Assembly (NCBI GenBank): GCA_022839995.1
Contig: JALHIN010000006.1
Location: 9,539 to 73,538 of the forward strand
Source of the DNA: Synergistota bacterium
GTDB taxonomy: Bacteria; Synergistota; Synergistia; Synergistales; 79-D21
DNA: 64,000 nt
Direction of reading: 5' to 3'
Below the pieces are notes generated by a model, which did no database searches, was not told the origin of the DNA, and was given only the letters and a program-made list of their open reading frames with translations. The number at the start of each line of letters is the position of its first letter. Position 1 is the first letter of the stretch. Made by a program: the position numbers and the translations under genes. Shown here in pieces: positions 16,005 through 64,000 of this stretch.

Positions 16005-17117
16005 TCAAAGGTTTGGCTCTTCGACGACGGGGAAATAGAGACGGAGATGGGTGACGCGCTCCAGGGCGTTATCCTGTTTGCCGATTGCCTCCGGCAGGCC
16101 TGTCCAGGGGCCGCCCTCGATCCGGCAAAGGATGAGCGGTCTCCTTCCATAGGTGGACCATAGGTCCCAAAGTTGTTCCGTCTCCCGGGGGCCCGGTACG
16201 AGTATCCCCCCAAAAAGTGGAGGGCGACCGGTAAGGGGAGTTTTACCGTCAGCAGAATCGATGATTAGCCACTGGGTCTTTTGCCAGGCGCCTTCCATCT
16301 CGGCGGAATGGGCATGATTGAAGGGGATGATTTGAAAGCCTCCGATTGTCCCCTCCGGCGATGTGCTGATGTCGATCACGCCGGGGTGATTGGCCCTGAG
16401 CCGACCGACGGATTGGAAGAGGGTCCCCTCGAAACGCCCGACTCCTCTGACCGGGCGAAGGACTCTTGCGATCACGCCGCTTTGTTCGACGGACCTGGAC
16501 CAGGAAAAAACCCTCCCGCCGGGCCTGTTTTCGATCTCGATCATGTATGGGGAGCAGAGGCTGTTGACATCGATCCGGAGGACTTCGCCCTCTTTGGGGA
16601 GCAAACCTCCATTTAGCGGGCGTTCCTCTCCTGAAGCCGAAATCACGGTTACGGGTGCACCTACCGGTGGGGCCCAGCCCCCAAAGAGCCCATAGCCTCC
16701 CTTGCCCTCCACGACGAGGGCACTGCCGGGCCCGGCCGCAGGAGCAACCGTTTCGGACGGGAGAAGGCTGAGGGTCCTGCCTCGGCCCTTTTCGATGTCG
16801 ATCAGGAGGTGGATTGCGTTGACTGCTGATGCAGCGACCGTCCCCGGGGTACCCCATCGGCTTGCCGTGTAGGCTGGCCATCGGGTTTTTTCGGGGAGCA
16901 AACCAACTTGCCCGATCGACTGTTCCGAGCCGTCCGGAAATCGGACACTCACGATTCCCCCGACCTGGAACGGAATAAAAATTGAATACAAGAGGCGCGG
17001 GGTTTCCGCCTGCGTAGGAGGTGTTACCTGAAAAAGGATCCCAAAAATCAGCAGAAGGGCGATCAGGAATCTCTTGGTTGAGGAAGGTGATTTTGAGCCA
17101 AGTGGTTTCTTTCTCAT
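16005..17117 (-). CDS. secreted protein of unknown function
   Basis: 370 aa. Signal peptide KRFLIALLLIFGILFQVTPPTQA|E. Gly/Pro-rich and beta-rich, with recurring LFGG and xNH/IDIS-like segments. I recognise no family. Confidence 0.7.
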   Translation of the reverse strand: MRKKPLGSKSPSSTKRFLIALLLIFGILFQVTPPTQAETPRLLYSIFIPFQVGGIVSVRFPDGSEQSIGQVGLLPEKTRWPAYTASRWGTPGTVAASAVNAIHLLIDIEKGRGRTLSLLPSETVAPAAGPGSALVVEGKGGYGLFGGWAPPVGAPVTVISASGEERPLNGGLLPKEGEVLRIDVNSLCSPYMIEIENRPGGRVFSWSRSVEQSGVIARVLRPVRGVGRFEGTLFQSVGRLRANHPGVIDISTSPEGTIGGFQIIPFNHAHSAEMEGAWQKTQWLIIDSADGKTPLTGRPPLFGGILVPGPRETEQLWDLWSTYGRRPLILCRIEGGPWTGLPEAIGKQDNALERVTHLRLYFPVVEEPNL

Positions 17118-59914: not shown

Positions 59915-60706
59915 ATGGGAAGAACGAAGCTGATCGCCGGAAACTGGAAGATGTACCACGGGATCGCCGCAACCGGCAAGTTTCTCTCGGAGCTGGAAGC
60001 GAAAATCACGAAGGATACGGGGGTAAAACAGGCCCTACAGGAGTGTCGGATCGAAATGGCCATTTTCCCCCCCTTTACGAGCCTCTGGAGGGCCCTGGAA
60101 GGAAAACGGTATTTACCCTGGCTCAAAGTGGGGGCTCAGAACGTGCACTGGGCTACCGAGGGAGCGTTTACCGGAGAAGTTTCGGCGGGAATGCTGAAGG
60201 AAGCAGGCTGTGATTATGTCATTATAGGACATAGTGAGCGCAGGCAGCATTTCGCGGAAACCGACGACCAGGTGCACAAAAAGATCGATGCAGCCATTTC
60301 GGCAGGGGTGCAGGCGGTTCTCTGCGTAGGGGAAACCTTGCAGGAGCGGGAGTCCGAAGAAACGGTGCCCGTTGTCGAGAGACAATTGATGAAAGCCCTC
60401 GTGGGGCTTCCGCCGGATGAGATTGGCGGTTCCGTTTGCGTCGCCTATGAACCCGTTTGGGCAATCGGCACGGGAAAGAATGCCACCGCCCGTGAAGCAC
60501 AGGAAGTCTGTCAGGCCATTCGGCGATTCCTGTCGGAACGCTTCGGCGATGAGACAGGAATGACCGTCAGGATCCTCTACGGAGGCAGCGTTAAGCCGGA
60601 CAACGCGGCGGGACTCCTGAACGAACCGGATATCGACGGCGCTCTTGTGGGGGGCGCATCGCTTTTGGCAGGTTCCTTTGCGCAGATTCTGACCGCGGCG
60701 CTCTAA
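59915..60706 (+). CDS. tpiA: triosephosphate isomerase
   Basis: IAGNWKM, IIGHSERR, AYEPVWAIGTG and YGGSV motifs. Confidence 0.96.
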   Translation: MGRTKLIAGNWKMYHGIAATGKFLSELEAKITKDTGVKQALQECRIEMAIFPPFTSLWRALEGKRYLPWLKVGAQNVHWATEGAFTGEVSAGMLKEAGCDYVIIGHSERRQHFAETDDQVHKKIDAAISAGVQAVLCVGETLQERESEETVPVVERQLMKALVGLPPDEIGGSVCVAYEPVWAIGTGKNATAREAQEVCQAIRRFLSERFGDETGMTVRILYGGSVKPDNAAGLLNEPDIDGALVGGASLLAGSFAQILTAAL

Positions 60707-60739
60707 GTTCCCGTTTCTTTTCAAAAAAACTAAGAAGAC

Positions 60740-60778
60740 GCCCCTTCCTTTTCCTTCAAAGGGAAGGGGTGCTTTTTT
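60740..60778 (+). terminator. intrinsic terminator after tpiA
   Basis: CCCCTTCC...GGAAGGGG (extendable with TTT/AAA), followed by TGCTTTTTT. Confidence 0.85.
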
Positions 60779-60795
60779 GGACTTTTCCTCGCATA

Positions 60796-60823
60796 ACGCA
60801 ACATAAGATACATTATAGGACAG
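60796..60823. other. dif: candidate dif (XerC/XerD chromosome-dimer resolution) site
   Basis: The reverse complement CTGTCCTATAATGTATCTTATGTTGCGT contains ATAATGTATCTTATGTT, a 16/17 match to the dif core ATAATGTATATTATGTT as I recall it from E. coli. It lies in non-coding DNA between the two terminators, at the convergent strand switch. Confidence 0.5.
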
Positions 60824-60834
60824 CAATGGGAAGA

Positions 60835-60861
60835 CAAAAAAGAGGCGTTCTGACGCGCCCC
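60835..60861 (-). terminator. intrinsic terminator after rsfS (minus strand)
   Basis: On the minus strand, GGGGCG-CGTCAGAA-CGCCTC (6 bp including one G-U) followed by TTTTTT. Confidence 0.6.
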
Positions 60862-60914
60862 TTTTTCCCCCGAATTCATTTTCTATTATTTACTGCGAAT
60901 CTGTTTAGGTCGGT

Positions 60915-61262
60915 CTATACCGTCATTTCCTCGTCGAAAACGAACGTTTCAGCGTCTCCCCAGATTCGCTCGATCCCATAATAATCGCGACCCTGGCGGC
61001 TGAAAATGTGAATCACAAGGTTTCCGGCGTCGACGAGACGCCACCGGGCGCTCGTGGCTCCTTCCACCCGTGCTGGAAGTTCGAGAGCCTCCAGTGTGTC
61101 CAGGGTCGTTTCCAAAAGCGTGTTCATGTGGACATCCGAGTTCGCCGTGGCCAGGATGAAGGTGTCTGCAAGGGTTGTCGTTTCTCCGAGGTTCATGACG
61201 GTGATTTTTTCCGCGTGCTTGTCGGACAACGACTTCACGATGGCTTGAGCTTCTTTGCTCAT
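60915..61262 (-). CDS. rsfS: ribosome silencing factor RsfS (iojap)
   Basis: ADTFILATANSDVHMNTL...RWRLVDAGNLVIHIF...RDYYGIERIW. GAAGGAG lies 5 nt before ATG 61262; the track ORF begins at TTG 61286. Confidence 0.9.
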   Translation of the reverse strand: MSKEAQAIVKSLSDKHAEKITVMNLGETTTLADTFILATANSDVHMNTLLETTLDTLEALELPARVEGATSARWRLVDAGNLVIHIFSRQGRDYYGIERIWGDAETFVFDEEMTV

Positions 61263-61318
61263 CTTCTCCTTCAGTTTCTCCCTCAATCATGCGTCACCTC
61301 CGGTATATGAACTAAAAA

Positions 61319-62575
61319 TTAAAGATTTCTCTTGTACTGTTTTAACCTTTTCAGAATTATATCATAATCCTTGCCGACGATAATCGTCGCATGGGTAGCC
61401 CCCCGGTTCGGGCGGACGAGGTTTGCAGGAACGCCGCAGAGCTCCCCTAGTGCCCTTGCATTGGCGAGAACCTGGGCTGAGGGATTCTCCGGGTGGGCAA
61501 TGTTGGTGTATCGGTAATCGAAATGCTTGGCATTCCCAAGGAAAGCCACGTCAATTCCGAGGCGCTGCAGGTGTTCCGAAAAAGCCTGGCTGATACCCTT
61601 GACTCCGCAGCCGTTCAGGACCGCGACCTGTCCCTTGATTCTATCGAGGATGGCATCGGCTGGGACGAGAGCCTCCTCCGGGGGCCTTTCTCCTTTGTCT
61701 CCGCTGACGGGTATCGGAGGGGTCGTCAGGAATTCCGAGGCAAGGGCGATATCTCCGAGCCAATAGCTGATTCCATCGATCATGGCAGCTTTTCCCGGCA
61801 TCGTTTCGAACGAGAATCGGCTTCGGTCGAGGTCCTTCAGGTAATTGACCATCTGGATGGCCTGAGTGGGCTGAATTTCCGTCTGGAAGAAACGGGTCGC
61901 TTCCTCCACGATTTGCGGAAGCCTGGTTACGGTCTCGGGCTCTCGGAGCTTGTTCAGGACTTCTTTCAGGAAAAGCTGCTGACGTTGAATGCGGCCGATG
62001 TCTCCGAGAGCATCGTGGCGGAAGCGGACGAATTCCAGCGCGGTCTTCCCGTTTAATGTCTGGCGCCCTGCCGGGATGTCGATGTAGAGCCCCCCGGCCC
62101 GGTCGGTATAGCGAAGCCGTTTGGGAACGTCGACCGTTACTCCTCCCAGGAGATCGACCAGCTTCGGGAAGCTCTGGTAGTTGACGATCACGGAATAGTG
62201 AAGGGGAATTCCAAGGAAATTCGAGACCGTGGAACGGAGAAGTTCAATCCCGCCGTAGGCGTAGGCGTGGTTGAGCTTCTGCCAGCCATGTTTCTCGATC
62301 TGAACTCGGAGGTCTCGCGGAAGGGAAAGCACCTTGACGAACCGGTCATCGATATTGATCGCGACGACGGCGATCGTATCGGAACGGTGGGATCCCTGAA
62401 CATCATCGATTCCCACGGCAAGGATGTTGATATTGCCGGTTAAGGCGTCGTGCTCGAAACTTTTTTCGATCTCCTGCGATCCAGGGGAAACGATCGTGTG
62501 CATTCGCCAGGCGACCCCCAAGGCGATTGAAAGCGCGGAGAGAGAGAAAAAAAGGATTAGGCGGGCTTTTTTCAA
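61319..62575 (-). CDS. LytR-CpsA-Psr (LCP) family protein with C-terminal LytR_C-like domain
   Basis: N-terminal TM, then NILAVGIDD...HRSDTIAVVAIN...VLSLPRDL...KLNHAYAYGG. TTG start 7 nt after GGAAGGTGA. Confidence 0.9.
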   Translation of the reverse strand: MKKARLILFFSLSALSIALGVAWRMHTIVSPGSQEIEKSFEHDALTGNINILAVGIDDVQGSHRSDTIAVVAINIDDRFVKVLSLPRDLRVQIEKHGWQKLNHAYAYGGIELLRSTVSNFLGIPLHYSVIVNYQSFPKLVDLLGGVTVDVPKRLRYTDRAGGLYIDIPAGRQTLNGKTALEFVRFRHDALGDIGRIQRQQLFLKEVLNKLREPETVTRLPQIVEEATRFFQTEIQPTQAIQMVNYLKDLDRSRFSFETMPGKAAMIDGISYWLGDIALASEFLTTPPIPVSGDKGERPPEEALVPADAILDRIKGQVAVLNGCGVKGISQAFSEHLQRLGIDVAFLGNAKHFDYRYTNIAHPENPSAQVLANARALGELCGVPANLVRPNRGATHATIIVGKDYDIILKRLKQYKRNL

Positions 62576-62581
62576 GCCGTT

Positions 62582-63172
62582 TCACCTTCCGTTCCGAATG
62601 TAGAGGTTTTTCTTGAAGATATAGTGTTCAACGGTCCAGGGCAGCAGATACCTTGTGCTCTTTCCTTCCAGGACGCGATCCCTGATCTCGGTGCTCGAGA
62701 TGGCGAGCATGGGGATTTCAAGTGGGATGATCGCCTTCTGGATCGGTTCGGGCAATTCCTTCAGCCGGGCGGAATTGTACCCAGGCCGGCTGACTGCCAC
62801 GATCCTGCAAAGTTCAACGATCGCGTACGGTTCTTTCCATGAAAGGATGTCGAGGACTCCGTCGAGCCCCGTTATGAAAAAGAGCTCCGTGCTGCCCGGT
62901 GCATACCAGTGTCGCATTTCCCTCAGCGTGTCGACCGTATGGCTGTCTCCTCCACGGTCGATTTCGAGACGTGAGACCTTGAAATGCGGGTTGTCCAAAG
63001 TAGCCAGGAGGGTCATCGTGTAGCGGTCTTCCGGAGAGGATACGAGTTTTGCCCTTTTGTGGGGGGGATTCCCCGTCGGGACAAAAATCACCTCCGACAG
63101 CCCAAGGGCAAAATAGGCTTCCTCCGCCGACACGAGATGCCCGTAATGGATGGGATCGAACGTACCACCCAT
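62582..63172 (-). CDS. nadD: nicotinate-nucleotide adenylyltransferase
   Basis: GGTFDPIHYGHL (HxGH) and ISSTEIR motifs. ATG 63172 removes the first beta strand. The in-frame upstream sequence reads ...RNRVGIMGG, so the start may be CTG 63211, preceded by AAAGGGGAGAGG. Confidence 0.9.
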   Translation of the reverse strand: MGGTFDPIHYGHLVSAEEAYFALGLSEVIFVPTGNPPHKRAKLVSSPEDRYTMTLLATLDNPHFKVSRLEIDRGGDSHTVDTLREMRHWYAPGSTELFFITGLDGVLDILSWKEPYAIVELCRIVAVSRPGYNSARLKELPEPIQKAIIPLEIPMLAISSTEIRDRVLEGKSTRYLLPWTVEHYIFKKNLYIRNGR

Positions 63173-63231
63173 GATACCGACTCGATTCCGGCCTAGAAAG
63201 GTCTGGCTCAGGGTCCTCTCCCCTTTCGGGA

Positions 63232-64000
63232 TCAGGCTTCCCGGTCTTCCGGATTCTCCGGGGGTTCGATGGCTTTTTCCGGCTTGAAGGTGAACTCCGT
63301 TTCCCCGATGGTGACCAGGTCACCTTCCCTGGCACCGGCTTCCTCGAGCAGTTCTTCCACTCGGTACCGGGCCAGCAGCCGGGAAAATCGAAGGATGGCC
63401 TCGTCCTGGTCAAAATTGTACCTTAGGACGGCTTCTTCGAGGCGGGAATGGATCACACGATACCCCTTATTCGCGCGGAGCTTCACGATTTGGACTATAT
63501 CCCGTTTTCTCGAGGCCAACCCCGATTCCGGTTCCTCCTGCAGGGCAACCAGTCGGGTTTCCCCCTTCGGGCGAGGGATGGCCCTGGAATGTTCCACGAT
63601 CGCTTCGGCCAGGCAGGCAATTCCTTCTCCCGTCAGGGCGCTCAAGGGAAAGAACCGCAACCCCATCCTTTCGAAAGCTGCGCTGATTTCTTCAAGGACC
63701 GTCCTGTTCTCCAGGAGATCGATCTTGTTTCCGACGACAAGGGTTGGCGTTTCCAGGAGAGCCGCCTTGTATTGCCTGAATTCTTCCCGGACGGTCTCCC
63801 ATTGTTTCATTACGGGCGAAACGCCCGTCCCTTCCGAAACGTCGAGGACGTGGACCAGGAAACGCGTCCGTTCCACATGCCGGAGGAAAGCCAGCCCGAG
63901 CCCGAGATTGCGATGGGATCCCTCGATGAGACCCGGAACATCGGCGAGGACAACCCGTTCATCGTCAACCGACAAGACTCCCAGGTTCGGAGAGAGCGTG
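63232..64000 (-). CDS. obg: GTPase Obg/CgtA, C-terminal two-thirds (5' end outside window)
   Basis: The frame is open to the window edge (TLSPNLGVLSVDDERVVLADVPGLIEG). G3 DVPG and G4 NKID are present, with a C-terminal OCT domain (GDLVTIGETEFTF). Confidence 0.93.
   Translation of the reverse strand, partial: TLSPNLGVLSVDDERVVLADVPGLIEGSHRNLGLGLAFLRHVERTRFLVHVLDVSEGTGVSPVMKQWETVREEFRQYKAALLETPTLVVGNKIDLLENRTVLEEISAAFERMGLRFFPLSALTGEGIACLAEAIVEHSRAIPRPKGETRLVALQEEPESGLASRKRDIVQIVKLRANKGYRVIHSRLEEAVLRYNFDQDEAILRFSRLLARYRVEELLEEAGAREGDLVTIGETEFTFKPEKAIEPPENPEDREA

Follow-up and report, generated by a model that had tools for sequence, protein, structure and literature searches.

A probable chromosomal dif site in the tpiA-rsfS spacer of a Synergistaceae bacterium

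A spacer between two converging operons

The DNA analyzed here is a 64,000-nucleotide stretch (the window) from a member of the Synergistota whose TpiA is 100% identical to a protein of the Synergistaceae MAG GCA_012517495.1. Toward its right-hand end, two runs of genes converge on a spacer of 208 bp: gap-pgk-tpiA, with the tpiA stop at 60706, arrives on the plus strand, and obg-nadD-lytR-rsfS, with the rsfS stop codon starting at 60915, arrives on the minus strand (Table 1). To the left of the spacer, 46 of the 47 ORFs taken as probable genes lie on the plus strand over about 60 kb, including a V-type ATPase operon, the mraW-pbp-mur-fts cluster of cell wall and division genes, moa, rapZ-cofD-whiA, and gap-pgk-tpiA itself. 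All four genes to its right in the window (rsfS, lytR, nadD, and obg) lie on the minus strand, and in relatives the right arm holds 19 to 20 genes over 20 kb, every one of them directed toward the spacer. These right-arm genes include those for L27 and L21, a recN-like gene, nadK, tlyA, dxs, ispA, xseB, a gene with a thiamine pyrophosphokinase domain, ftsK, pmbA, yqeH, mltG, and genes of the FTCD (formimidoyltransferase-cyclodeaminase) family. The convergent strand switch described in the earlier note, which gave about 42 kb of plus-strand genes, is real and larger than claimed, extending over about 60 kb on the left and, in relatives, 20 kb on the right.

Each of the two gene runs ends in an intrinsic terminator of its own. 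Folding verified both hairpins and both U runs, and a 28-mer sits between them, as had been proposed. The rsfS terminator hairpin is bordered by an A run and, on its opposite side, by a T run, and is therefore possibly bidirectional; a search of the plus strand picked it up as terminator-like too. The 28-mer, with a converging operon's terminator on either side, thus lies in a transcription-free pocket, and folding gave it no RNA structure (z +1.1 and -1.7). An RNA element was considered and rejected, as Rfam returned just two weak miRNA-family matches, far below gathering scores and both on the tpiA terminator hairpin. Two ORFs that overlap the 28-mer, at 60113-60826 on the minus strand and 60769-60981 on the plus strand, run antisense to tpiA and across the terminators, respectively, and were not taken as genes.

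Table 1. Features of the tpiA-rsfS spacer in the window, and sites with the same arms on three annotated viral contigs
Feature	Sequence record	Position	Strand	Remarks
tpiA, last gene of the plus-strand run (gap-pgk-tpiA)	Window	59915..60706	plus	Pfam TIM, E 6e-88
Intrinsic terminator of tpiA	Window	60739..60779	plus	14-bp stem followed by a T run; -28.7 kcal/mol, z -4.65
Putative XerD-binding arm TTATGTTGCGT	Window	60796..60806	minus	8/11 identical to the E. coli XerD arm TTATGTTAAAT
Central hexamer TGTATC, presumed strand-exchange region	Window	60807..60812	minus	5/6 identical to E. coli TGTATA
Putative XerC-binding arm CTGTCCTATAA	Window	60813..60823	minus	Inner ATAA makes up an inverted repeat with TTAT in the other arm
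Intrinsic terminator of rsfS	Window	about 60832..60871	minus	-20.3 kcal/mol, z -2.55; followed by UUUUUUG
rsfS, last gene of the minus-strand run (obg-nadD-lytR-rsfS)	Window	60915..61286	minus	PF02410 RsfS in identical contigs
Site on tailed-phage contig	L115	4825-4849		GC 0.33; large terminase, exonuclease
Site on tailed-phage contig	L165	885-909		GC 0.55; large terminase, portal, major head protein
Site on tailed-phage contig	L181	11867-11891		GC 0.52; large terminase, portal, major head protein

Sequence of the 28-mer and its conservation in relatives

The 28-mer occupies window positions 60796-60823 and reads ACGCAACATAAGATACATTATAGGACAG on the plus strand. Its reverse complement, CTGTCCTATAATGTATCTTATGTTGCGT, agrees exactly with the sequence given in the earlier note when the window is read again. 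Written on the minus strand as CTGTCCTATAA-TGTATC-TTATGTTGCGT, it has an 11-6-11 architecture, is AT-rich, and carries an inner ATAA/TTAT inverted repeat around the 6-bp center. The 17-nt core, ATAATGTATCTTATGTT, occurs once in the 64-kb window even when three mismatches are allowed (shuffle mean 0.02), and the bare dif skeleton ATAA-N6-TTATG is found in the window at the 28-mer and nowhere else (shuffle mean 0.01). The site would also fit the Firmicutes dif consensus with one mismatch, at the same central base that differs from E. coli. The core is identical at 16 of 17 positions to the E. coli core, ATAATGTATATTATGTT; this bears out the one-mismatch match given in the earlier note, the dif of E. 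coli K12 being listed as GGTGCGCATAATGTATATTATGTTAAAT (PMC2731167). None of 100 dinucleotide-preserving shuffles produced such a match, in keeping with the expectation that it would be rare by chance. Over all 28 positions, identity to E. coli dif is 18/28 and falls mostly in the inner arms and the center.

Conservation was assessed with spacers chosen independently of the motif. We retrieved the tpiA-rsfS spacers of eight species through TpiA homology alone (50 to 100% identity; the seven species other than the window's own at 81, 77, 74, 70, 61, 55, and 50%). All eight keep the motif, over 25 to 28 bp, and the remaining spacer has diverged. Alignment of the eight spacers gives 23 invariant columns that all fall within window positions 60795-60822, and 3 in the other roughly 180 bp. 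The terminators have retained their function with unrelated sequences. Inside the site, only three parts vary: the central hexamer (TGTATC, TATATC, TTTATC, or TGGTTC), a single base in the presumed XerC arm (CCTATAA or CTTATAA), and the bases at the very ends; TTATGTTGC of the presumed XerD arm is invariant in 8/8 species, and within Synergistota the presumed XerC arm varies only as TGTCYTATAA.

Comparison with characterized and predicted dif sites places the 28-mer close to the classical form, with one distinctive region. Like E. coli dif, it is 28 bp long in an 11-6-11 arrangement with a core, ATAATGTAT-TTATGTT, identical at 16/17 positions; it is also intergenic, unique in its window, and placed where gene orientations converge, in a clade whose FtsK has a gamma domain. 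Unlike E. coli dif, which is experimentally defined, the Synergistota site is a predicted one; it has GCGT rather than AAAT in the outer XerD arm, TGTCCT rather than GTGCGC in the XerC arm, and C as the last base of the center. A nearer likeness comes from the Deltaproteobacteria, where dif sites were likewise predicted from sequence and position. The predicted dif of Syntrophus aciditrophicus, TTGTCCTATAAGATATATTATGTAAACC (Carnoy & Roten 2009, PMC2731167), has the same skeleton and a XerC arm, TGTCCTATAA, identical to that of Synergistota, whereas its XerD arm is the canonical TTATGTAAAC and that of Synergistota is TTATGTTGCG.

The assignment of XerD to the arm TTATGTTGCGT is putative and follows from sequence similarity. 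In its outer bases, this presumed XerD arm has GC in place of the proteobacterial AA, and position 25 of the 28-mer is a G, where the A of proteobacterial dif is described as "highly conserved" (PMC2731167). The G25 deviation is conserved across Synergistota and Actinomarina, which suggests a clade-specific arm more than a decayed one, and it leaves room for a divergent recombinase.

Distribution among genomes and viral contigs

A scan of 185,579 species, one genome each, with the pattern GCAACATAA-N6-TTATARGACA (19 fixed positions) returned 94 matches, where roughly 9 would be expected by chance under uniform base composition. Synergistota account for 42 of these loci, from 41 assemblies, with 'Bacterium M3-1' counted among them on gene context; they include Synergistaceae, Thermovirgaceae, Aminiphilus, Acetomicrobium, Dethiosulfovibrio, and Fretibacterium. 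Another 44 come from Ca. Actinomarina or other marine Acidimicrobiia, one per assembly, and the last 8 are scattered over unrelated taxa, a number near the chance expectation. Among assemblies with the motif, the strict pattern occurs once in 40 of 41 Synergistota assemblies and once in 44 of 44 Actinomarina-like ones. Outside the 28-mer, sequence similarity among the loci breaks off. At the central hexamer, which the pattern left free, 20 of the 42 Synergistota loci read TGTATC and 19 read TATATC, and 43 of the 44 Actinomarina-like loci have TATATA. Proteobacterial dif centers behave alike, being fixed within a clade and different between clades (PMC2731167).

Most Synergistota loci also have the same gene context. 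By tblastn, with identity down to about 40%, tpiA lies immediately left of the site in 34 of 42 loci, and the right neighbors are rsfS-lytR-nadD-obg in most, with other genes there in several lineages; synteny at the site therefore extends through most of the phylum. The motif nonetheless is not tied to these genes, being present in unrelated gene contexts. In Fretibacterium it lies between genes for an MCP and an MFS transporter, and in Actinomarina between genes for adenosine deaminase and an alpha/beta hydrolase.

This context independence weighs against a reading in which the 28-mer is a conserved operator, or another cis-regulatory or structural element, tied to the expression of tpiA or rsfS, with a likeness to dif that comes only from being an AT-rich palindrome. 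Occurrence in the same tpiA-rsfS spacer in most Synergistota loci is what such an element would lead one to expect, but the site lies downstream of both genes, between their terminators, and comes with neither RNA structure nor a credible Rfam match. A 25-mer that recurs once per genome beside unrelated genes in Fretibacterium and Actinomarina, and also on phage contigs, fits a regulatory role poorly, and we consider this reading very improbable.

Several of the loci bear description in their own right. The Actinomarina-like loci (within L020-L108; for example, L079:3802-3826) read TGTCCTATAA-TATATA-TTATGTTGCGTTATG, once per assembly in 44 genomes, and on four Actinomarina-like contigs of about 1 Mb the site falls at 45.6 to 58.8% of the span. 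The Actinomarina-like motif is probably the dif of Actinomarinales, with the unusual XerD arm that it has in common with Synergistota. Intact dif-like sites with the same arms are also present on Planctomycetota-labelled contigs, two from MAGs (L054 and L103) and one labelled Ca. Kuenenia (L023); the last may be misbinned, because its GC of 0.61 seems not to fit Kuenenia. Kono et al. 2011 reported that dif prediction failed for Planctomycetota.

The MAG of Dethiosulfovibrio sp. STD2_11 has two dif-like sites on two contigs with differing neighbors (L063:3266-3290 and L024:1721-1745; see also L052:4181-4205). Around one of them the order is tpiA, the site with center TAAAAC, ribB, and clpB; around the other it is a gene for a 197-aa tyrosine recombinase, a methyltransferase gene, the site with center TGTATC, and rsfS. 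An insertion at dif, or a rearrangement there, seems to have parted tpiA from rsfS in this MAG. The 197-aa protein was the only tyrosine recombinase found, and it had no other tblastn match in any locus.

Viral genomes contain the same pair of arms. Scanning IMG/VR yielded 72 viral contigs (L111-L182) with both arms and 28 different central hexamers. The three annotated contigs are tailed-phage genomes, each with a large terminase (Table 1). Genes that flank the site in the Actinomarina host were not detected on the viral stretches examined, and neither was an integrase or tyrosine recombinase, the latter being a weak test. Integrative mobile elements exploiting Xer (IMEX), such as CTXphi, VGJphi, and TLCphi, carry arms that resemble host dif around a center that differs, and the 72 viral contigs stand in the same relation to the cellular sites. 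Conserved arms with divergent centers, as in these Xer-exploiting elements, suggest that recombinases bind the arms. Classical IMEX are filamentous phages or genomic islands, whereas the viral contigs examined here are tailed phages, and the site in the window, in contrast to an IMEX, is the cellular, clade-invariant version, single copy in nearly all assemblies. By analogy, the viral contigs are candidate tailed phages that would use the Xer recombinases of the host to integrate at dif.

The same observations can be turned around, so that the site is only an attB for integrating phages or other elements and plays no part in dimer resolution. The 72 viral contigs with its arms would suit an attachment site, as would the Dethiosulfovibrio MAG with two copies, one of them about 0.7 kb from a small tyrosine recombinase gene. 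Serving as an attB, however, would not by itself explain why 25 of 28 positions are conserved throughout a phylum and from one phylum to another; what mobile elements target are sites kept by the host for a function of its own. Nor was an integrase detected on the viral stretches examined, weak as that test is. We hold an exclusive attB role to be exceedingly unlikely.

Recombinases, the dif reading, and chromosomal position

FtsK of relatives (755 aa; L109:5513-7780 and L110:5503-7770) has the domains PF17854, PF01580, and PF09397, which correspond to alpha, motor, and gamma domains. The gamma domain of FtsK is the activator of XerD. In the window's clade, ftsK lies 12 to 14 kb from the site, on the right arm and directed toward it. 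No tyrosine recombinase gene was found in the window, where Pfam was run on every plausible 280- to 340-aa ORF, and neither xerC nor xerD was found there or in any locus retrieved; in the literature, xerC is annotated across Synergistota.

Not every dimer-resolution site is served by a XerC/XerD pair, and single-Xer or alternative systems include XerS/difSL, XerH/difH, and archaeal XerA. The 28-mer could likewise be the substrate of a single Xer-type recombinase or of a divergent pair. Its presumed XerD arm would be the reason to think so: the outer half is GCGT where canonical sites have AAAT or AACT, including A25 (PMC2731167), the same unusual arm is common to Actinomarina and two Planctomycetota MAGs, and no xerD was observed in the loci examined. 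Set against this, the arms are unlike one another, with each conserved separately, and in length and 6-bp center the site follows classical dif; the alternative sites of dif type listed for epsilon-proteobacteria are 40-mers with a different consensus (PMC2731167). The annotation of xerC across the phylum and an FtsK with a XerD-activating gamma domain also speak for the canonical pair. A single or divergent recombinase is in our judgment unlikely.

We conclude that the 28-mer is very probably the chromosomal dif site of this Synergistaceae bacterium. The proposal of a dif-like XerC/D site is supported by its architecture, conservation in 8/8 species, near-single copy number, independence of context, a center fixed within the clade, and a nearby FtsK with a gamma domain. 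On the E. coli and B. subtilis paradigm, XerC would bind the arm CTGTCCTATAA and XerD the arm TTATGTTGCGT. A crossover between sister chromosomes would produce a dimer, and septum-bound FtsK would pump DNA until both dif copies met. The gamma domain would then activate XerD, and two pairs of strand exchanges across TGTATC would return monomers. On the same reading, recombination would take place at the 28-mer and replication forks would meet there.

A Synergistota dif seems not to have been cataloged before. The phylum is absent from the accessible text and supplements of the dif survey of Kono et al. 2011, and a dif of Synergistota or Actinomarina is described in none of the papers that our literature search covered. 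On the features tested, the site seems to belong with classical XerC/XerD dif and to be set apart by its outer XerD arm. With it, Synergistota have a concrete dif sequence, and the tpiA-rsfS spacer becomes a fixed landmark that could help to orient and scaffold MAGs, to place the terminus for coverage-based estimates of replication rate, and to recognize elements that integrate at dif. Because dif function is textbook housekeeping, we regard the finding as a useful annotation rather than new biology. More interesting as leads are the arms common to two or three phyla, the phage contigs that bear them, and the near phylum-wide fixation of position. Speculatively, the arm pair TGTCCTATAA / TTATGTTGCG might define a distinct dif class, comprising Synergistota, Ca. 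Actinomarinales, and possibly Planctomycetota, that is the target of many unrecognized tailed phages having these arms around central hexamers of their own and using host Xer in place of an integrase; the tpiA-rsfS location in Synergistota might also have been kept since the origin of the phylum, implying an unusually stable terminus. We offer this broader idea tentatively and think it has a minority chance of being right.

The position of the site on the chromosome is a separate question. Since the gene orientations of both chromosome arms meet at the site, it should lie in or near the replication terminus region. The earlier note had placed it exactly at the convergent strand switch, as a possible terminus; the convergence of gene orientation, over at least 80 kb, and the position in one complete genome support a terminus circumstantially, local skew and KOPS polarity being uninformative. 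A position exactly at the terminus is plausible but unproven, and we would lean slightly toward it. CP159918.1, a complete genome, has the site at 1,047,049 of 2,203,405 bp, or 47.5% counted from the start of the record, which may differ from oriC; counted in the same way, it is at 2.4%, 35.5%, and 84.6% on three other long MAG contigs, whose records may likewise start elsewhere.

Motif polarity had been put forward as a check through KOPS-like sequences. Occurrences pointing toward and away from the site were counted on three arms: the left arm of the window and the right arms of two relatives, L109 and L110. In that order, the toward:away ratios of GGGNAGGG were 21:9, 8:3, and 7:2 (pooled 36:14), those of GAAGAAG were 26:5, 9:3, and 5:3, and those of GAGAAGGG were 4:4, 0:2, and 2:1. 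The polarity of GGGNAGGG toward the site is typical of 42 composition-matched permutations (2.36:1) and therefore carries no specific KOPS signal. The 8-mers that a de novo search found skewed on the left arm failed to show the same skew on the right arms, and no KOPS-type motif was identified.

GC skew changes at the site, from +0.09 on the left to between -0.01 and -0.03 on the right. The change arises mainly from first codon positions, an effect of coding strand and gene orientation. Third-position skew, read in the coding sense, has a mean of +0.044 on the left arm (sd 0.084, 46 ORFs) and ranges from -0.06 to -0.12 on the right arm (window 60915-63975, L109:1-19700, and L110:1-19650). Two leading strands should mirror each other in this respect, and the two arms do not; the sign of the left-right difference is inconsistent across Synergistota and opposite in other members. 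Because the signal is mostly from first positions, the arms are not mirror symmetric, and the sign varies within the phylum, local GC skew is uninformative either way. The lone sizeable minus-strand ORF within the 60-kb plus-strand run, at window 16005-17117, had no Pfam hit; it encodes 370 aa with a coding-sense GC3 skew of -0.205 and is either an isolated gene in head-on orientation or not a gene at all.
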